The notes beneath the pieces are model-generated. The model made no database searches. It saw only the letters and a program-made list of their open reading frames with translations, and was not told where the DNA came from. A stretch of DNA of 64,000 nt from a virus. Its lineage: Duplodnaviria; Heunggongvirae; Uroviricota; Caudoviricetes. Shown one piece after another: positions 6,127-31,649 of this stretch (its first letter is position 1; each line of letters starts with the position of its first letter). The position numbers and the translations under genes were made by a program. The stretch lies in IMG/VR virus record IMGVR_UViG_3300027770_000034. One strand, written 5' to 3'.

Positions 6127-6153
6127 TTTTTTGGCAGTTTAAAATATTGTCCT

Positions 6154-10440: not shown

Positions 10441-12593
<2,153 letters not shown>

Positions 12594-12594
<1 letters not shown>

Positions 12595-14522
12595 TGGCTA
12601 ATGTAATTATATATCCACAAGGAAATGGTAGTATAACTGACCCATATGTGATGATGGACGACGGTACTGCAAAGATGGCGCTTGATGTTCAAAGTGGTCA
12701 AATTGTAATGTCATCTTCAACAAATGCTAGTTCAACTACAATTGCCAATACTATTATTTCAAGTGGTACGTCAGTAACAGGCAACTTATTTGTTGGTGGT
12801 ACCAAAATGATTGATAATACAGGTGTTTGGGTTGGTCCAACAGCTGGAATTAAAGGGGGTCAAGGTTCTCAAGGAGGACAAGGAGCACAAGGGGCAACAG
12901 GTTCTCAGGGTGCTACAGGTAATCAAGGGGCTCAAGGTGGTCAAGGTTCTCAAGGAGGACAAGGAGCACAGGGGAACATAGGTAACACAGGAGCCCAAGG
13001 TAATATAGGAGCTCAAGGTAGTACAGGAGCTCAAGGTTCGCAAGGGGCTCAAGGGGCTGCAACAGGAGCTCAAGGTAACACAGGAGCTCAAGGAGCTCAA
13101 GGTTCTCAAGGGGCTCAAGGAGCTTCACAAGGTGCTCAAGGTGCTCAAGGTAATACAGGAGCTCAAGGGGCTCAAGGGGCTCAAGGTGCTTCACAAGGTG
13201 CACAGGGTAATGTAGGTAATACAGGAGCTCAAGGTGCTCAAGGTGCTCAAGGTGCCTCACAAGGAGCCCAAGGAAATACAGGTAATACAGGAGCACAAGG
13301 AGCTCAAGGAGCCCAAGGTGCTTCAACAGGAGCTCAAGGAGCTATAGGTAATACAGGTGCTCAAGGTGCTCAAGGAGCTCAAGGGGCGTCAACAGGAGCT
13401 CAAGGAGCCCAAGGTGCTCAAGGTGGTACTGGTTCACAAGGTGCTCAAGGTGCTTCAACAGGGGCACAAGGAGCTCAAGGAGCACAAGGTGGTACTGGTT
13501 CACAAGGAGCTCAGGGTGCTGCAACAGGAGCTCAAGGAGCCCAAGGAGCACAAGGAGGAAAAGGTTCACAAGGAGCTCAGGGTGGTTCAACAGGTGCTCA
13601 AGGTGCTCAAGGAGCTCAAGGTGGTGGAGGTTCAACAGGTGCTCAAGGTGGTTCAACAGGAGCTCAAGGAGCTCAAGGAGCACAAGGAGGAGGAGGTTCA
13701 ACAGGTGCTCAAGGTTCTGTAACAGGAGCCCAAGGTGCTCAAGGTGGTGGAGGTTCAACAGGTGCTCAAGGTGGAAATACAGGAGCTCAAGGAGCACAAG
13801 GTGGTGGAGGTTCTGCAGGTGCGACAGGAGCTCAAGGTTCAACACCAGGTGCACCAGGAAATCAAGGAGCACAAGGCTCAACACAAGGAGCAACAGGTGC
13901 TGCGGGAAGTACTACAGGAGCTCAAGGTTCACAAGGTGGGGGAGGTCCAACAGGAGGTCAAGGAGCCCAAGGTTCTCAGGGAGGTGTAGGAGATGGTGGG
14001 AATACAGGCGCCACAGGTCCTACGGGTCCTCAAGGCTCAACAGGAGCTCAAGGAGGTGGTGGTCCACAAGGTGCTCAAGGAGGTCCAGGTGGTCAAGGTC
14101 CTCAAGGAGCTCAAGGTTCAACAGGACCTCAAGGTGCTCCAGGACCTCAAGGTGCTCAAGGTACTACAGGTCCTCCATCTGACATGAGACTGAAAGATAA
14201 TATCAAAAAAATTGATAATGTTTATTCTAAAACAAAAAGTGTTGAAGGTGTTAGTTTTATATGGGACCATGAGCATACAAAAATTAAAGATGACAAGAGT
14301 ATTGCAGTACAAGAAGCATTTAAAGGGCCAGCGATTGGTTTAATTGCTCAGCAAGTAGAAAATGTGGTTCCTGAATTAGTATTTACTGATGATGATGGAT
14401 TTAAATCAATTGAATATGGTGCGATGGTAAGTCTTGGATTTGGTTCAATACAAGAACAACAAAAAATAATTGATTCTATTTATCAAAGAATAAACAAACT
14501 TAAAGAATTAATAGGTGGCTGA
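12594..14522 (+). CDS. collagen-like tail fiber protein with C-terminal intramolecular-chaperone (Peptidase_S74) domain
   Basis: G-X-Y repeats, then [16 protein letters not shown]...GVSFIWD...[16 protein letters not shown]. Coupled to its neighbours (ATGG overlap). Confidence 0.8.
12840..14170 (+). repeat. collagen-like codon-periodic nucleotide repeat
   Basis: Same repeat class as in fiber gene 1. Confidence 0.9.
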
Positions 14523-26353: not shown

Positions 26354-27766
26354 TTGAAAAAATTAATTAAAGAGAGTGGTATAAGAGACATTTCGGCTTT
26401 AAGGAAGAGATACCCTAAAGCCGAAATTTATTTTCACCAAGATTTAGATGGTGTTACCACTGCGATTGCGATGAAGAAATACCTTGAAAACAATGGTATT
26501 GATGTTGTGGGTGCTCATATTATACAATATGGTGATAAAGAGTTTTCAGTTAAAAAGAATGACGCTAGTGGTGATGTAATGCCAGTACTTGTTGATTTTG
26601 CACACGGAAAACCAATGTTCAAGATTCACACAGACCATCATGACAAACAAGTTGGTGCTGAAAAAGGAACTTCAAAATCTTTCAGACAAGCTCGTTCAAA
26701 TGTTGAAACAATATCTCAAGTTGTTTCACCTAAAAAATTGTTCCCAAGTTCAGATGTTTTATTAATTAATACAGTTGATTCTGCAGACTTCGCAAGACAA
26801 AACATTACGCCAGACGAAGTGGTAAACTACATCTATAGAATAGATAAAGATAAATCACTTCAAAGAAATAAATTGTTATTAGGATTTGTTATTAACAAAT
26901 TAATATTAGCATTTAAAAACAAACCAGGATTTTTAGAAAGACTTGTTATGGATTCAGAACCTTCGCTAATGAATATTTTGAACAACATTAAAGAATGGAT
27001 GAAAGATACTAACGCACCTGAGCCAGAAGAATTACAAAGAAATGCAGAAGACTATAAAGAAAAAATGAAGGGATTTCCCGAAGTACAAGACAATATTATT
27101 TACCAATACGGTGGAGGTAGTATGTTCAAGCCTGGGTCATATGACAGGTATACCCCATTTAGAAATAATCCTGATGCAGACTTTCTCATTATGGTTTGGC
27201 CGATGGGGTTGGTACAGGCTTCATGTAATCCGTTTAAAAAGGATAGGGAACTTAAGGATGTTAACCTTGGCGAGATTGCCCAAGAGGTTATATCAAGGTG
27301 GGAAGGCCAACTTAAAGAAAAGAAAATACCGTTATCATCAATAAAGTGGATTAGTGAAACAAGTGTTAACCCTGAGAGTATTGGGTTTACGTTCCAAGAT
27401 TTTGATGCGATTTATGGCGGAAAATTTATTGGTGTACCTAACGGAGAAGAGGCATTGATGAGAATTAAAGAAATGATGGAAAAACCATTTAAAGATTTAA
27501 CGGATAGAGAAAAGAACATATTAGATAATGTATTGATAAATGCTTGGGATTTAATTCAGGCAAACTCAGGTGGACATAAGTGTATAACTAATATCAGCGG
27601 ATTAAATTATTTGGGTAGAGGTACAAGACCTCCTCAAGGGACGTATCGTTATGACTCAGAGAAAGAAGACCATCCTTATGTTAAATTTACAAAAATGATT
27701 GCTCAGGAGTTCAGAAAAAAACTCCAAGAAAAGATTGAGGAATCCAAACAGTCTGTTGAATCTTAA
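26354..27766 (+). CDS. DHH-family phosphoesterase
   Basis: Motif I FHQDLDGVTTAIAM (H-x-D-x-D-G) and motif III IHTDHHDKQ (DHH). 470 aa. Confidence 0.65.
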   Translation: MKKLIKESGIRDISALRKRYPKAEIYFHQDLDGVTTAIAMKKYLENNGIDVVGAHIIQYGDKEFSVKKNDASGDVMPVLVDFAHGKPMFKIHTDHHDKQVGAEKGTSKSFRQARSNVETISQVVSPKKLFPSSDVLLINTVDSADFARQNITPDEVVNYIYRIDKDKSLQRNKLLLGFVINKLILAFKNKPGFLERLVMDSEPSLMNILNNIKEWMKDTNAPEPEELQRNAEDYKEKMKGFPEVQDNIIYQYGGGSMFKPGSYDRYTPFRNNPDADFLIMVWPMGLVQASCNPFKKDRELKDVNLGEIAQEVISRWEGQLKEKKIPLSSIKWISETSVNPESIGFTFQDFDAIYGGKFIGVPNGEEALMRIKEMMEKPFKDLTDREKNILDNVLINAWDLIQANSGGHKCITNISGLNYLGRGTRPPQGTYRYDSEKEDHPYVKFTKMIAQEFRKKLQEKIEESKQSVES

Positions 27767-29108: not shown

Positions 29109-29221
29109 AAATATTATTCATTGTTTGGTTTGTAGTGTCAATTGTTGCCAATGTATGGGCATACATTCATATGACCAAAAAAGCGAAAGAAGAAATAAAA
29201 AAATTAAATAATTTAAAATGA
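29105..29221 (+). CDS. small hydrophobic peptide (38 aa)
   Basis: MKILFIVWFVVSIVANVWAYIHMTKKAKEEIKKLNNLK. ATGA overlap with the Nudix stop. Single TM helix. Below the ORF-track cutoff and read by eye. Confidence 0.3.
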   Translation: MKILFIVWFVVSIVANVWAYIHMTKKAKEEIKKLNNLK

Positions 29222-29355
29222 ATCTATTAATTGGTATAGGTATAGTAATGTTTATTTTTGCTGTGTACTGTTGTATTGACATGAACAGACAATTAAAAAA
29301 AATTGTTGAAAAACTTGATAATTAAAAAAAAAGTTATTACCTTTGTAAGACTTTG
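29218..29355 (+). CDS. small hydrophobic peptide (about 45 aa), uncertain
   Basis: MNLLIGIGIVMFIFAVYCCID... coupled by ATGA to the previous peptide. Its C-terminal codons run into promoter P1. Confidence 0.2.
29337..29344 (+). promoter_or_regulatory. -7 promoter element TACCTTTG (P1)
   Basis: TAnnTTTG consensus at the start of the ORF-free island. Confidence 0.4.
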
Positions 29356-29424
29356 ATGAAAATGGAGATATTTATATTTCCACACCTGAAAAGGTGAACA
29401 TCCCCAAAAAAAAGTTTCATAAAA

Positions 29425-29456
29425 ATTTGACGGTGTCAAAACTGTTGATTACCTTT
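29425..29456 (+). promoter_or_regulatory. strong promoter P2 (TTTGAC, 18-nt spacer, TACCTTTG)
   Basis: gatttgac/aatttgac upstream element plus -7 TAnnTTTG. Near-identical in architecture to P3 and P4. Confidence 0.6.
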
Positions 29457-29461
29457 GTGAG

Positions 29462-29519
29462 ACAACCTTATCCCACAAGTGAAAAGATTGAGAGATTTCA
29501 GTAACTTGTGGGGTTTTTT
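29462..29519 (+). ncRNA. candidate small RNA (about 55-60 nt) ending in an intrinsic terminator
   Basis: Transcript predicted from P2: GAGACAACCTTATCCCACAAGTG...CTTGTGGGGTTTTTT. CCACAAGT...ACTTGTGG hairpin plus T6. No ORF. Confidence 0.4.
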
Positions 29520-29629
29520 ATCGGATGTTGTTTAGCTCTTTAAAAATTTGATTACACCCGCTGGTACAACCAGCGCATGACGTGGATAGGTGACCGTGGG
29601 GAAGTGGGATTGTAATCATTAAGATATAT

Positions 29630-29702
29630 CGTGAGGTAGAGCAGTGGTAGCTCGGAAGGCTCATAACCTTTAGGTCGCGAGTTCGAATCTCGCCCTCGCA
29701 AC
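29630..29702 (+). tRNA. tRNA-Met (CAU anticodon), initiator-like C1:A72 mismatch
   Basis: Cloverleaf read by hand. Acceptor CGTGAGG/CCTCGCA has a C1-A72 mismatch. D arm GAGC-AGTGGTA-GCTC. Anticodon stem GAAGG/CCTTT with loop CTCATAA. T arm GCGAG-TTCGAAT-CTCGC. No encoded CCA. Confidence 0.85.
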
Positions 29703-29710
29703 AAAAAAGA

Positions 29711-29742
29711 TTTGACGAATTGAAAAGTTCTTCTTATCTTTG
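29711..29742 (+). promoter_or_regulatory. strong promoter P3 (TTTGAC, 18-nt spacer, TATCTTTG)
   Basis: Lies immediately downstream of the tRNA. Same architecture as P2 and P4. Confidence 0.55.
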
Positions 29743-29865
29743 AAAAACAAACGACGAGAGTTGTTTGTTCTTTGAAATGATAACCGAATAAACCTGTCCT
29801 ATTACGAGTAGGGGGTCTTAAGAATTATTCGTTGTATTATCGGCTCAAAAAAACTTACAAAAAGA

Positions 29866-29897
29866 TTTGACAGTTTCAAAACTTTCATTTACCTTTG
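29866..29897 (+). promoter_or_regulatory. strong promoter P4 (TTTGAC, 18-nt spacer, TACCTTTG)
   Basis: gatttgacagtttcaaaactttcatttacctttg. Drives transcription into the ORF-free GC-elevated region. Confidence 0.55.
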
Positions 29898-29904
29898 TAA
29901 GACA

Positions 29905-30916
29905 AGTGAAGAGAAGGGGTAGTAAAGGTTCCAAGTTTACTTGGTCGTAAAGTTTCCCCTTTTCTTCATTCTTTAAAAAGTTCTTTGAATAAAAATATTG
30001 TCTGTTCAGAATGTTTGATGATGAGACCTTCGGGTTGATTTTGAGTAACAAACTGATAAGATATATTGGGCGGTCTATAGTCCATAAAATAAACCATGAA
30101 AGTGGTATAAAGTGATTTGTTCTTGATTGGAACGGTTGCGGCTTCGGAAACGGAGCTCGAGTAGACAAACGAGATATCATCTGACCTTTAGTATTGAGGG
30201 TAACACTGTAGGGAAAGTGGTTAGATGACTAAGCGATGTGGGTCGTTTAGTTGAGGTGGGAACACCGATAAGAATAACTCGTAGGGCTGTTGTAAGAAGT
30301 ATGGTCGTCCAACTATACAATTGCGGAGTTCAATATTAGAGTAGATTTAAAACCGAAAGGTAAGAGTTCGTACAGGTGGTGCTGTTGTTCTCCTTATCAG
30401 AGACCTACCAAGGTTTCAGTTATGAAATAGACTCAAAGTATGGAGGTCGGGAGACTTCAAGGTGTAGTTCAGCATTGTCTCGTTCAAAAGATGGGGCATC
30501 TGGTTTGACGAACCGCTACATCTATCATCCACAAATCAAACTTTTACTTTCAAATGGTGAAAACTAAAATAAATAAAAGGAAAAGTGTTCGTCAGTCGTG
30601 GTAGACAGGTCACTACTTAGTCATGAGTTGTTCATGGCCGTAAAGGGTCCCAAACCCGATACGATTGTTTTGAAAGTTCTCTAATCCCGCAAGGATGAGT
30701 TTGGGTGGCAACCTAGAAGAGTGATGAGTAAGAATAGAGTATATTACGACTTTAGGATTGGTTAATCTAATTGACCGTGACTGAGAGGTACTTCTCAAAA
30801 GGAAGTGGAAATCGGAGGAAACAATAATCTCCTGTAAAGTCTCTCACAAGATGGTGTATTCTCAACCTATTTTGCCTTAACCCTGTCCGTTTCTACGGAT
30901 GGGGTTTTTTGTTTTT
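29905..30916 (+). ncRNA. candidate large structured non-coding RNA (about 1 kb)
   Basis: About 1 kb with no plus-strand ORF above 63 aa in an otherwise roughly 90 percent coding genome. GC visibly above the surrounding sequence. Many local hairpins with tetraloops: GACCTTCGGGTTG, CGGCTTCGGAAACGG, ACCGAAAGGT and TCCCGCAAGGA. A long stem GAAGAGAAGGGG...CCCCTTTTCTTC sits at the 5' end. Ends in a strong intrinsic terminator. Confidence 0.45.
30881..30916 (+). terminator. Rho-independent terminator
   Basis: CCCTGTCCGT TTCT ACGGATGGGG hairpin plus TTTTTTGTTTTTT. Confidence 0.65.
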
Positions 30917-30932
30917 TGATATATTTATTATT

Positions 30933-31649
30933 ATGAATTTAAATAACGATAAATTAGTAATAGAAGAGCTTTCAAGGATGAAATCTCTTTTTGGATATGA
31001 AAGAGGTAAAGTTATCTCTGAACAAGTTGTTTCTAATACACCTAACTATGGATTTAAAAATCCATATGGATTTACCACAACAACACCCTCTCCTTCAGCA
31101 CCTGCAGAAAAAACTTTACCTGATGTAACCGTTAAGAGTACTTTAACTCCAAGACAAAAAAACATTAATAATGCTTTTTGTGCCGTTAAAAATGGTGCTA
31201 TTGTAAATCCTTCATCGGCAAATAATGGAGTAAAATGGGTTGATTTTATTACGACTTATAAGGTTACAACGGCAGAAATTGCGACATCTCAAAAAAAATG
31301 TCCTAATAGTGAAGTCGCGGTCAAAACTAAAACACCAAGAAAACCAGACCCAAAGGTTATTGAATTACAAAAAACATTGGTTGGTACAATAGTTAAAGGA
31401 AGAAAATTTACTGATGATGATGTTGATGGGTTTATGGGACCAATAACAAGAGCCGCTCAACAACAAATGACACAACAAAAGAGTCAAGACCAATTAAAAC
31501 AACCAGCAACTCAAGATGCAGTAGTTACACAACCTCAACAAAATGATGTAGTTACACAAGAACCACCACCAGAGCCAGGACAAACTGGAGATTATAAAAA
31601 TGGTTGGTATTGGAATGAAAAAAGTCAAGAATGGTATCAACCTCAATAA
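30933..31649 (+). CDS. hypothetical protein, Thr/Pro/Gln-rich
   Basis: Start moved to the ATG after the terminator T-run (MNLNNDK...). Low-complexity Q-rich C-terminus. Confidence 0.5.
   Translation: MNLNNDKLVIEELSRMKSLFGYERGKVISEQVVSNTPNYGFKNPYGFTTTTPSPSAPAEKTLPDVTVKSTLTPRQKNINNAFCAVKNGAIVNPSSANNGVKWVDFITTYKVTTAEIATSQKKCPNSEVAVKTKTPRKPDPKVIELQKTLVGTIVKGRKFTDDDVDGFMGPITRAAQQQMTQQKSQDQLKQPATQDAVVTQPQQNDVVTQEPPPEPGQTGDYKNGWYWNEKSQEWYQPQ

Follow-up and report, generated by a model that had tools for sequence, protein, structure and literature searches.

A full-length GOLLD RNA gene in a phage genome within a putative island of rRNA-leader-like transcription units

The window analyzed here is a 64,000-nucleotide stretch of DNA from a virus of the class Caudoviricetes (IMG/VR record IMGVR_UViG_3300027770_000034). 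The product of one of its segments, the region 29330–30916, which is flanked by tail-fibre and NUDIX genes, is not evident from the open reading frames. This raises the question of what the segment encodes and how it could be expressed. The original prediction regarded it as an island of RNA genes with four consensus promoters, a tRNA, a terminated small RNA and a large structured RNA of about 1 kb, possibly of a new or divergent kind. One neighbouring protein has relatives among the ORFs of LR745206 and LR756502, two huge uncultured phages with GOLLD RNA genes of their own. A megablast search with 24 kb against INPHARED gave no match; the only links, to these two phages, were at the protein level. 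We hold it highly likely that the island belongs to a phage with a Bacteroidota host and that it comprises a canonical GOLLD gene within three stable-RNA units with rRNA-type leaders, preceded by one short unit.

Identity and extent of the large RNA

Comparison of the region 29200–31000 with the Rfam covariance models revealed a match to the GOLLD family (RF02032) at 30460–30868. The match scores 328 bits (gathering score 150, E-value 3.1e-93) and extends over positions 1–416 of the 416 model positions with only two non-canonical pairs. Apart from GOLLD, only the tRNA was found. In a permissive scan of the same region (E ≤ 10) everything beyond these two was noise below 27 bits. RNase P RNA, tmRNA, group I and group II introns, ROOL and known ribozymes, none of which gave a gathering-score match in 29200–31000, were therefore rejected. 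The original prediction had likewise recognized no RNase P, tmRNA or intron. It had named GOLLD only as an analogy, and its proposal of a new or divergent large RNA has to be withdrawn: the large RNA of the island is GOLLD, an already known kind of RNA, and not a new family.

The RF02032 model covers only the 3′ half of the molecule, so readers and annotation pipelines can take the 5′ 400 nt for new. The lack of an Rfam match of their own in these 400 nt, together with the known hallmarks that were not recognized by eye, would fit a new large RNA family, unrelated or distantly related to GOLLD. This explanation has a negligible probability, as the 3′ half reaches 328 bits over the full model and the 5′ half aligns with GOLLD env-38 and with 58 homologues. 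GOLLD env-38 forms a closed 14-mer nanocage made of RNA only, the structure of which was determined by cryo-EM (PDB 9MEE; Kretsch et al. 2025, PMC12286853). Positions 2–808 of env-38 align end to end with 30067–30862 of the window at 70% identity; the env-38 sequence used for the alignment has 813 nt, and the published construct about 831–833 nt. The 400 nt upstream of the Rfam match are the GOLLD 5′ domain (30066–30459, plus strand), as is indicated by the alignment with the 5′ half of env-38, by covariation, and by blastn similarity to the GOLLD loci of LR745206 and LR756502. The conserved part of the 3′ domain follows at 30460–30868 on the same strand, and an A-rich variable linker within it (about 30525–30595) aligns to an unpaired region of the model. 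The window thus contains a full-length GOLLD gene of the env-38 sub-group, located at about 30066–30868 and approximately 803 nt long, with the order 5′ domain, linker, 3′ domain in about 800 nt in all.

Related loci were fetched from IMG/VR with a motif of the 5′ domain (n = 118). The GOLLD homologues are 796–848 nt long in about 105 of the 118 loci, and the homology among the relatives has sharp boundaries at 30063 and about 30868. The window sequence and 58 non-redundant viral homologues were combined into an alignment of 59 sequences. RNAalifold predicted 186 pairs in this alignment, 137 of them with compensatory changes, across both domains; the covariation term amounts to −49 kcal/mol. 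The homologue covariation suggested with the original prediction hence shows a conserved RNA structure. The sequence CGAAAGG at about 30351–30357, corresponding to the L11a-type GAAA loop, is nearly invariant among the homologues (alignment columns 364–369). A further loop reads GCAA in the window and UCGAA in others of the homologues, a GC-to-CG switch as published for L21a (alignment columns 778–786). In the env-38 cage, contacts are made by the L11a GAAA loop and by a self-complementary GC/CG dinucleotide in L21a (PMC12286853); its cap is formed by the 5′ domain. The env-38 helix names used here were assigned by alignment, without the structure file, and exact residue numbering is not carried over.

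The same alignment bears on the possibility that the segment encodes a protein, in a frameshifted gene or on the minus strand. The longest plus-strand ORF in 29330–30916 encodes 63 aa, and the only longer ORF of the island is a 111-aa ATG ORF on the minus strand (29845–30180), which might be such a gene. Its frame is closed in the relatives with 88–93% identity, where the stop-free stretch at this site measures 47–89 aa, and in the window the ORF straddles the P4 promoter and the leader that follows it. The variation among the homologues is that of covarying base pairs, their indels are not multiples of three, and no conserved reading frame with synonymous-site bias was seen across them. The protein-gene explanation is thus practically untenable, and the claim that the island has no credible coding potential is confirmed.

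The GC content is 0.39–0.42 over 30.0–30.9 kb versus about 0.30 in the flanks. The GC-elevated structured segment of the original prediction is therefore real; its start lies at about 30066 and not at 29.9 kb, as the stretch 29905–30065 is a leader. The strong terminator expected at its end is present at 30879–30916 on the plus strand and consists of a 12-bp hairpin (30879–30906) and a T-run, with a fold energy of −18.5 kcal/mol (z −6.1). The expectation of a large, ornate and terminated phage RNA next to a tRNA proved correct, with GOLLD as the RNA in question.

Promoters, leaders and small RNA modules

The promoter pattern TTTG-N20-TANNTTTG occurs nine times in the 64-kb window, versus 1.0 copies expected, and none of 100 shuffled sequences reached nine. 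Three copies lie within the island (29426–29457, 29711–29742 and 29866–29897), and every one of them begins with TTTGAC. Except for the promoter modules, no island element is repeated elsewhere in the window. The first of the four proposed promoters, P1, is represented by the −7 box TACCTTTG only (29338–29345, plus strand). The box is conserved in the relatives, and the 15-mer TTACCTTTGTAAGAC around it (29337–29351) is identical to the copy in P4. P1 is not matched by the above pattern and has no −33 TTTG at the consensus spacing, so the island contains three full promoters and one partial promoter rather than four.

P1 is followed by module A (29351–29410, plus strand), a small RNA element conserved in the relatives. 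It is composed of hairpin 1 (29363–29382) with the invariant AUAUUUAU, hairpin 2 (29383–29396) with a GAAA loop, the sequence GAACAUCCCC and an A-run. An nhmmer search located module A upstream of GOLLD in 33 loci; the distance is 333–865 nt, and the strand is the same in all of them. All four pairs of hairpin 2 show compensatory changes, and 98.7% of the cells are paired; for hairpin 1 only 77% are paired.

The second promoter, P2 (29426–29457, plus strand), is a full Bacteroidota-type promoter with the structure TTTGAC-N18-TACCTTTG, and its module shares 81% identity over 59 nt with that of P4. Module B (29470–29520, plus strand) lies directly downstream. It is a terminator-like element consisting of an 11-bp hairpin (29470–29514; fold energy −17.3 kcal/mol, z −3.1) and U6, and takes the place of boxB in the tRNA unit's leader. 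The element is present in 30 loci, and its stem covaries, for example CCCACAAG/CUUGUGGG versus CCUACAAC/GUUGUGGG. A boxA-type motif, GCTCTTTAA (29535–29543, plus strand), is located after module B and before module C and the tRNA. Module C (29549–29619, plus strand) is an element of about 70 nt with very high conservation that lies 9–23 nt 5′ of the tRNA. It was found only in the window and 14 close relatives, each time directly 5′ of tRNA-Met. Its core CCCGCUGG..CCAGCGCAUGACGUGGAUAGGUGAC is almost invariant, with two substitutions in one relative, and its outer stem occurs in two variants, GAUUACACCC/GGGAUUGUAAUC and AACUACCC/GGGUAGUU. Inspection of module C by eye as a degenerate tRNA or as an HDV-like or other ribozyme gave no convincing fold, and the module has no Rfam match.

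The predicted tRNA was confirmed as tRNA-Met(CAT), probably of the initiator type, at 29630–29702 on the plus strand (ARAGORN and Rfam, 63.7 bits). It ends 364 nt before GOLLD begins, and most relatives also have a tRNA-Met upstream of GOLLD. Bacterial initiator tRNA(fMet) is distinguished by an unpaired 1:72 position, an A11:U24 pair and an anticodon stem whose three lowest pairs are all G-C. The tRNA of the window has a C1xA72 mismatch, A11:U24 and, with A29-U41, G30-C40 and G31-C39, two of the three G-C pairs. Among the 74 GOLLD-linked tRNA-Met genes, the 1:72 position is unpaired in about 62 (C:A in 44, C:U in 15), and the full GGG/CCC is found in 12.

The original prediction assigned to P2 a short transcript ending at a terminator. 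The hairpin and U6 exist as described; the free-standing small RNA is doubtful. Under this explanation P2 would produce a terminated sRNA of approximately 60 nt (29464–29520), and the tRNA would be transcribed from elsewhere. With its 11-bp GC-containing hairpin and U6, the element has the classical form of an intrinsic terminator; it looks efficient, which agrees poorly with read-through to the tRNA, and it is kept in 30 loci. However, no promoter of either type was found from 29520 to the tRNA, and the sRNA would consist of little beyond its own terminator hairpin. Moreover, the relatives show the order hairpin, boxA-type motif within about 10–20 nt, then tRNA, which is also the order before GOLLD and before 16S. 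We consider the sRNA the less likely of the explanations. The lack of a separate tRNA promoter and the recurrence of the hairpin–boxA–tRNA order in the relatives favour a role of module B in the tRNA unit, as its leader hairpin or as an attenuator. The element could act as a leaky terminator, as an attenuator, or as the 3′ end of an sRNA of roughly 60 nt; as an attenuator it could be both leader hairpin and sRNA end.

The third promoter, P3 (TTTGAC-N18-TATCTTTG, 29711–29742, plus strand), is conserved in the relatives. Its leader (29748–29775, plus strand) contains a hairpin (29748–29767) overlapping the boxA-type motif TGTTCTTTGA (29766–29775). Module D (29778–29845, plus strand) is a small RNA, conserved in the relatives, in which a long closing stem is topped by an apical hairpin of 5 bp with the 7-nt loop UUACGAG. 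It was identified in 18 loci, its stem covaries (U-A to C-G), and its fold has a z score of −2.6. Positions 3–4 of the loop are variable, and U-U..G-A-G is mostly retained. P3 had been thought to drive the 1-kb segment together with P4. It has its own small RNA instead, and this is followed by P4.

The fourth promoter, P4 (TTTGAC-N18-TACCTTTG, 29866–29897, plus strand), is the promoter of GOLLD. A P4-like promoter is found within 300 nt upstream of GOLLD in 54 of 102 GOLLD loci, and in 13 of these 54 its 3′ end is 26–38 nt from the GOLLD 5′ end. Module E (29905–29970, plus strand), a 15-bp leader hairpin with the internal loops UAGUAAAGGUU and UCGUAAAGUUU, follows in the boxB position. Several stable hairpins had been foreseen for the island, and this one has a fold energy of −29 kcal/mol (z −4.9) and a covarying stem. 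It is present in 16 loci, nearly always directly after a promoter. The boxA-type motif GTTCTTTGA, inside the extended AAAAAGTTCTTTGAAT, is located at 29980–29988 on the plus strand before GOLLD. Alignment with the relatives revealed a 70-nt leader insertion downstream of it (29993–30062, plus strand), which carries the hairpin GAGACCUUCGGGUUG between ATATT repeats. The insertion is missing in six close relatives (L055, L060, L035, L006, L051 and L064), where GOLLD begins directly after GTTCTTTGA.TAAAAATATT. The dedicated strong promoter and the clean terminator together define a predicted primary GOLLD transcript.

Modules A, C, D and E have no Rfam family match (29200–31000, E ≤ 10). These conserved small RNAs of the island are not represented in Rfam and, judged by sequence, would be further unnamed members of the RNA operon.

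The boxA-type motif

The window copies of the motif [GT][TC]TCTTT[GA]A start at 29535, 29767 and 29980. The copy at 29535 contains GCUCUUUA, the core of the E. coli rrn boxA, and the relatives have AGTTCTTTAA at the site of GCTCTTTAA. The E. coli rrn boxA is UGCUCUUUA (PMC2724277). The motif is present within 200 nt upstream of GOLLD, on the GOLLD strand, in 97 of 103 loci (53 of 56 non-redundant loci); on the opposite strand it is found in two loci, and the background is 0.17 per kb per strand. It also lies within 150 nt upstream of the tRNA-Met in 32 of 72 GOLLD-linked tRNA-Met genes.

The same motif occurs in Bacteroidota rRNA operons. The commonest 8-mers in 92 Bacteroidota rrn leaders are TACCTTTG and GTTCTTTG/TTCTTTGA. 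The motif is found on the rRNA strand in 47 of the 92 16S leaders, versus 5 of 92 in antisense. In 13 of 30 rrn loci it is present in the 16S–23S spacer, and inside 16S it never occurs. (A)GTTCTTTGA(A) is thus a motif of Bacteroidota rRNA leaders and spacers. The rrn leader and the 16S–23S spacer are also the known locations of boxA (PMC10250234). Formation of the rRNA antitermination complex requires boxA, and boxA suffices for it (PMC2724277, PMC10250234). BoxC and a leader-trailer helix are dispensable for antitermination in E. coli (PMC2724277). BoxA also shields further non-coding transcripts from Rho, and this holds for Bacteroidetes as well (PMC7665894). Based on sequence and position, we regard the motif as a putative boxA-type element.

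The motif might instead be an RNase processing site, a degenerate −7 box of a second start before GOLLD, or the site of another factor. It does resemble the P3 −7 box TATCTTTGA (TAnnTTTG compared with GTTCTTTG), and a distance of only 11–18 nt to the GOLLD 5′ end, as seen in many loci, would also suit a start or a processing site. The distance nevertheless varies widely, from 11 to 122 nt, and no suitably spaced −33 TTTG is found upstream of 29980. A distribution over rrn leaders and 16S–23S spacers is that of boxA and would be unexpected for a promoter box, and the 29535 copy is identical to the E. coli boxA core in GCUCUUUA. These other functions are possible but rather unlikely, and a boxA-type element is the preferred assignment. 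The GOLLD loci of phiCbK, Vibrio phage PG07 and mycobacteriophage PegLeg, which come from other host phyla, show no such motif in the roughly 1.4 kb before the GOLLD 3′ domain, so the boxA-type leader is not general to GOLLD.

Comparison with known systems and proposed expression

The closest known system is env-38. Both RNAs are of the same length class (about 803 nt in the window versus 831–833 nt), consist of a 5′ domain, a variable A-rich linker and a 3′ domain, and have a GAAA loop at the L11a position and GC in an L21a-type loop. Both are located downstream of a tRNA-Met in environmental, aquatic phage-like sequence (env-38: PMC12286853). Aligned with the 813-nt env-38 sequence, the RNA of the window is some 17 nt shorter around the P11 region, and the 160-nt predicted transcribed leader of the window, comprising hairpin, boxA-type motif and 70-nt insert, lies outside the published env-38 construct. 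The 14-mer of env-38 was established by cryo-EM, whereas the GOLLD of the window is known here from its sequence. By analogy, given the 70% identity, it may also self-assemble into a multimeric RNA-only nanocage. GOLLDs with different helices form 12-mers and not 14-mers (PMC12990946). The Streptococcus agalactiae GOLLD (12-mer, PDB 9L0R) and the Lactobacillus brevis prophage GOLLD have the same conserved 3′ domain and, like the window, a phage or prophage context beside tRNAs. They lack P9, P11a–c and P21b, and their 5′ domains are divergent (PMC12990946), whereas the RNA of the window is built like env-38. Since they come from Firmicutes hosts, their promoters, unlike those of the window, are not of the Bacteroidota type. 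ROOL, another large and ornate RNA of phages and prophages, is also encoded near tRNAs and assembles into a cage of RNA only. It is unrelated to GOLLD in sequence and fold, and the window has no Rfam ROOL match.

The leader organization resembles that of the rRNA operon leader (rrnTAC) and of the lambda nut sites, where a promoter, a hairpin and a boxA-type motif precede a long untranslated structured RNA. The rrn leader (promoter, boxB hairpin, boxA, boxC) has rRNA as its cargo, whereas in the window a phage tRNA, a small RNA and GOLLD take the place of the rRNA. In contrast to the lambda nut sites, no N-like phage protein is implied. Another boxA case, published in 2020 (PMC7665894), concerns a long non-coding, non-ribosomal transcript that is protected from Rho, also in Bacteroidetes; it is a host locus with other cargo, while the window is phage DNA.

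We propose that the island is expressed as follows. The short P1 unit would yield module A and has no boxA. Each of the P2, P3 and P4 units would consist of a strong promoter with an rrn-type −7 box (TACCTTTG or TATCTTTG), a leader hairpin at the site of boxB, a boxA-type motif ((A)GTTCTTTGA(A) or GCTCTTTAA) and a stable RNA. P2 would drive module C and the initiator-type tRNA-Met, P3 the small RNA module D, and P4 GOLLD, with transcription ending at the strong intrinsic terminator. The boxA would load host NusB/NusE, and hence the rRNA antitermination complex, onto RNA polymerase. The long untranslated RNA could then escape Rho and fold co-transcriptionally, and the GOLLD product would self-assemble into a multimeric cage during infection. 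For the phage of the window, we infer the transcript ends, processing and abundance from this arrangement. The chances appear evenly balanced that Bacteroidota phages of the env-38 clade express GOLLD and the initiator-type tRNA as mimics of an rRNA operon that recruit the NusB/NusE antitermination and RNA-chaperone complex of the host, with rRNA-like rates, protection from Rho and co-transcriptional folding. The rRNA-style boxA leader suggests how phages make a long untranslated RNA in a host containing Rho.

Three side findings may be new: the promoter–hairpin–boxA units, the motif before GOLLD in 97 of 103 loci, and the probable initiator type of the tRNA. The locus and its roughly 100 relatives offer testable handles on GOLLD, namely the promoter and terminator, the boxA leader and the pairing with an initiator-type tRNA-Met, which is nearly constant in this clade. 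In pull-down assays cited by Kretsch et al., GOLLD bound bacterial ribosomes (PMC12286853). Together with the constant pairing of GOLLD with a putative initiator tRNA gene, this hints that the cage might act on translation initiation or on ribosomes.

GOLLD in the RNA island

A cmscan search of the whole window with the Rfam set at the gathering threshold identified GOLLD (RF02032) at 30460–30868, with a score of 328 bits (threshold 150) and an E-value of 3e-93. The match spans the full model and contains only two non-canonical pairs. A permissive Rfam scan added nothing credible to this result. Since the Rfam GOLLD model is limited to the conserved 3′ domain, the 400 nt upstream were tested separately. 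The sequence of the cryo-EM construct of env-38, a GOLLD RNA with a 14-mer nanocage structure, was taken from the supplement of Kretsch et al. 2025 (PMC12286853). This construct aligns end to end with window 30067–30862 at 70% identity; in comparison with env-38, the window RNA is about 17 nt shorter around the P11 region. Scanning IMG/VR with the conserved 5′-domain motif yielded 118 loci, about 105 of which contain full-length GOLLD homologues with sharp homology limits at 30063 and about 30868. After the redundancy cut (<95% identical), 58 sequences of 796–848 nt each were retained. The RNAalifold consensus of these 58 homologues and the window comprises 186 pairs, and compensatory double changes are seen in 137 of them, in both domains. 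The sequence CGAAAGG, with its GAAA loop at the L11a position, is nearly invariant among the aligned homologues, and a GCAA loop in some members corresponds to UCGAA in others, which is a GC-to-CG switch. The L11a GAAA loop and the L21a GC-to-CG switch are the env-38 loops of reported functional importance (PMC12286853).

On the basis of the RF02032 match, the env-38 alignment, the covariation of the homologues and the kept loops, the large RNA is identified as a GOLLD of the env-38 type, canonical and full-length. The original prediction of a new or divergent large ncRNA is thus not upheld, and a new family is ruled out by the RF02032 score and the end-to-end env-38 alignment. Its expectation of a large ornate RNA beside a phage tRNA was correct, as GOLLD lies downstream of a tRNA-Met(CAT) gene. 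The flagged RNA is an already known one, a strong Rfam GOLLD member and a close relative of env-38, and is therefore of low interest as a discovery. As the number of subunits, 12 or 14, differs among GOLLDs with different helices (PMC12990946), no stoichiometry is claimed for the window GOLLD.

The segment of about 1 kb assigned to the large RNA is real, but it starts near 30066 and not at 29.9 kb. Its GC content is elevated as claimed, 0.39–0.42 over 30.0–30.9 kb versus about 0.30 in the flanks. The strong terminator expected at its end was located at 30879–30906, followed by a T-run (fold z-score −6.1), and closes the island. ORFs on the plus strand of 29330–30916 reach at most 63 aa. A single longer frame, of 111 aa on the minus strand (29845–30180), was rejected as a gene, since it is stop-free over only 47–89 aa in relatives at 88–93% identity. 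The island can be regarded as essentially ORF-free, as proposed.

Promoters and boxA-type leaders

Nine matches to the Bacteroidota promoter pattern TTTG-N20-TANNTTTG were counted in the window, where 1.0 would be expected; none of 100 shuffles gave as many. Three copies, each in the TTTGAC form, lie in the island at 29426, 29711 and 29866. The first island promoter, P1, consists of the −7 box alone, and its 15-mer (29337–29351) is identical to that of P4, the GOLLD promoter. Of the four consensus promoters originally described, three are therefore full and the first is partial. It had also been suggested that both P3 and P4 drive the large RNA; P4 is kept as the predicted GOLLD promoter, while P3 leads into a separate small RNA, module D. 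Further matches to the pattern, at 6130, 31682, 36072 and 57252, are located ahead of protein genes. Their −33 element is TTTGG or TTTGT, not TTTGAC, and within the window the TTTGAC form is confined to the RNA island.

The alignment shows that the island arrangement as a whole, and not GOLLD alone, is conserved in 17 close relatives. A motif recurs after the leader hairpins: GCTCTTTAA at 29535, TGTTCTTTGA at 29766 and AAAAAGTTCTTTGAAT at 29975. Its boxA-type copies at 29535–29543, 29767–29775 and 29980–29988 have the form (A)GTTCTTTGA(A) or GCTCTTTAA. From 120 Bacteroidota 16S loci that were fetched, the 92 with a leader of at least 420 nt were used for the leader analysis. Besides A-runs, the top 8-mers in these leaders are the −7 box TACCTTTG and GTTCTTTG/TTCTTTGA/TCTTTGAA. 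The pattern [GT][TC]TCTTT[GA]A is found on the rRNA strand in 47 of the 92 leaders, mostly 90–200 nt ahead of 16S, and on the opposite strand in five. In 30 loci that included the spacer, the sense-strand motif was confined to the leader and the 16S–23S spacer (13/30), and none was detected inside 16S. Leader and 16S–23S spacer are the known locations of rrn boxA (PMC10250234). A processing site or a promoter-like box is an alternative reading of the motif.

The boxA-type reading was also examined at the GOLLD loci. Against a background of 0.17 occurrences per kb per strand, the motif is present on the GOLLD strand in the 200 nt preceding the GOLLD 5′ end at 97 of 103 loci (53 of 56 non-redundant) and on the opposite strand at two. 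In E. coli, the rrn boxA reads UGCUCUUUA (PMC2724277), and GCUCUUUA occurs exactly in the copy at 29535. The −7 boxes of the island (TACCTTTG) are the commonest rrn −7 box of Bacteroidota. In contrast, three phages of other host phyla, phiCbK (L241), Vibrio phage PG07 (L242) and PegLeg (L243), lack the boxA-type motif in about 1.4 kb upstream of GOLLD. The comparison with rrn loci shows that the GOLLD units carry predicted host rrn-type promoter and boxA-type signals.

Because the motif and the −7 boxes match Bacteroidota rrn, the island reads as a short P1 unit, with module A and without boxA, followed by three units that appear rrn-leader-like. Unit 2 runs from P2 through hairpin B, boxA and module C to the tRNA, and unit 3 from P3 through a hairpin and boxA to small RNA D. 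Unit 4 comprises P4, hairpin E, boxA, a 70-nt insert, GOLLD and the terminator.

We propose that the nascent putative boxA-type motif would draw NusB/NusE and the remaining rRNA antitermination complex. This complex shields untranslated RNA from Rho and is a proposed folding chaperone (PMC7665894, PMC10250234). The GOLLD transcript would be freed at the intrinsic terminator and, by analogy with env-38, which self-assembles at nanomolar concentrations (PMC12286853), would then self-assemble into a multimeric cage. Published ideas for GOLLD cages include the encapsulation of tRNAs, ribosomes or other cargo (PMC12286853). One prophage GOLLD builds up during lytic growth, yet is dispensable. In the literature accessible to the search, no paper tied GOLLD to boxA or antitermination, and no GOLLD link was found for an initiator-type tRNA partner or for the unnamed small RNAs. 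These three features, the rrn-style boxA leader, the tRNA partner of apparent initiator type and the small RNAs without a name, are modest but testable side findings.

The tRNA-Met gene and the small modules

The predicted tRNA was identified by both ARAGORN and Rfam as tRNA-Met(CAT) at 29630–29702. In most related loci, GOLLD is preceded on its own strand by a tRNA-Met(CAT), typically at a distance of 88–670 nt, and env-38 is likewise downstream of tRNA-Met (Kretsch et al., PMC12286853). The window tRNA has C1xA72, A11:U24, G30-C40 and G31-C39. The anticodon stem of the GOLLD-linked tRNA-Met has two or three G-C pairs at its base, and position 1:72 is unpaired in about 62 of 74 such genes. 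Judged by these features, the GOLLD-linked tRNA-Met appears to be of the initiator type.

No promoter of its own was found for the tRNA-Met gene. The P2 product, described originally as a terminated sRNA, would contain little beyond the hairpin at 29470–29514 and U6. In relatives the boxA-type motif comes next after this hairpin, ahead of the tRNA, at a motif-to-tRNA distance of 10–22 nt without module C and 86–109 nt with it. Because of this order and the missing tRNA promoter, the hairpin is better interpreted as part of the tRNA unit, either its leader hairpin or an attenuator; a short by-product RNA is possible.

Modules A, C and D have no Rfam match in the permissive scan. Module A (29351–29410) follows the P1 −7 box and is found in 33 GOLLD loci. 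Its hairpin 2 (29383–29396, GAAA loop) shows compensatory changes in all four pairs. The module also contains AUAUUUAU, which is invariant, and the C-rich, single-stranded GAACAUCCCC. Module C (29549–29619), of about 70 nt, occurs in the window and 14 close relatives, always directly 5′ of the tRNA at 9–23 nt, and resembles no known family. It is nearly invariant (n=15); the core CAUGACGUGGAUAGGUGAC differs in one relative only, and the outer stem exists in two co-varying versions. Its segment GUGGAUAG is partly complementary to CUAUCAUCCAC (30517–30527) at the GOLLD linker start, which may be chance. Module D (29778–29845), the small RNA from P3, is found in 18 loci. A long closing stem carries an apical hairpin that resembles an anticodon arm in shape (5 bp, 7-nt loop U-U-N-N-G-A-G). 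The two N positions of the loop vary among close relatives (ACG, AAG, AGG, UAG, GAG), and the stem covaries. An extra hairpin follows module D in some relatives.

The internal loops of the leader hairpin E (29905–29970), UAGUAAAGGUU and UCGUAAAGUUU, are similar to each other. A related motif, GGUUGAC..GUCGUAAAAUCGAGGUUCC, lies at other positions in relatives (L086, L021, L055, L013, L032, L060, L111, L047, L077, L098), where it follows the tRNA, P3 or P4. The 70-nt insert between boxA and GOLLD (29993–30062) contains the hairpin GAGACCUUCGGGUUG and has ATATT direct repeats at both flanks. About half of the close relatives carry the insert, whereas L055, L060, L035, L006, L051 and L064 lack it.

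Phage and host context

The window is phage DNA, with collagen-like tail-fibre genes at 10441–14522 and a NUDIX hydrolase gene just upstream of the island. Judging from the promoter type and the comparison with rrn loci, the host is probably a member of the Bacteroidota. No close relative of the window was found among deposited phage genomes. A neighbouring 470-aa ORF (26354–27766), for which PHROG gave no match, shares 45% and 39% identity with ORFs of LR745206.1 and LR756502.1, respectively. These uncultured phages of 635–642 kb both contain GOLLD (287 and 275 bits), and the window may derive from a large phage within that broad group. In the mycobacteriophage PegLeg, GOLLD is located in a tRNA/tmRNA cluster beside an HNH endonuclease gene, and in phiCbK a tRNA-Gly is annotated within the coordinates of the GOLLD 3′ domain.
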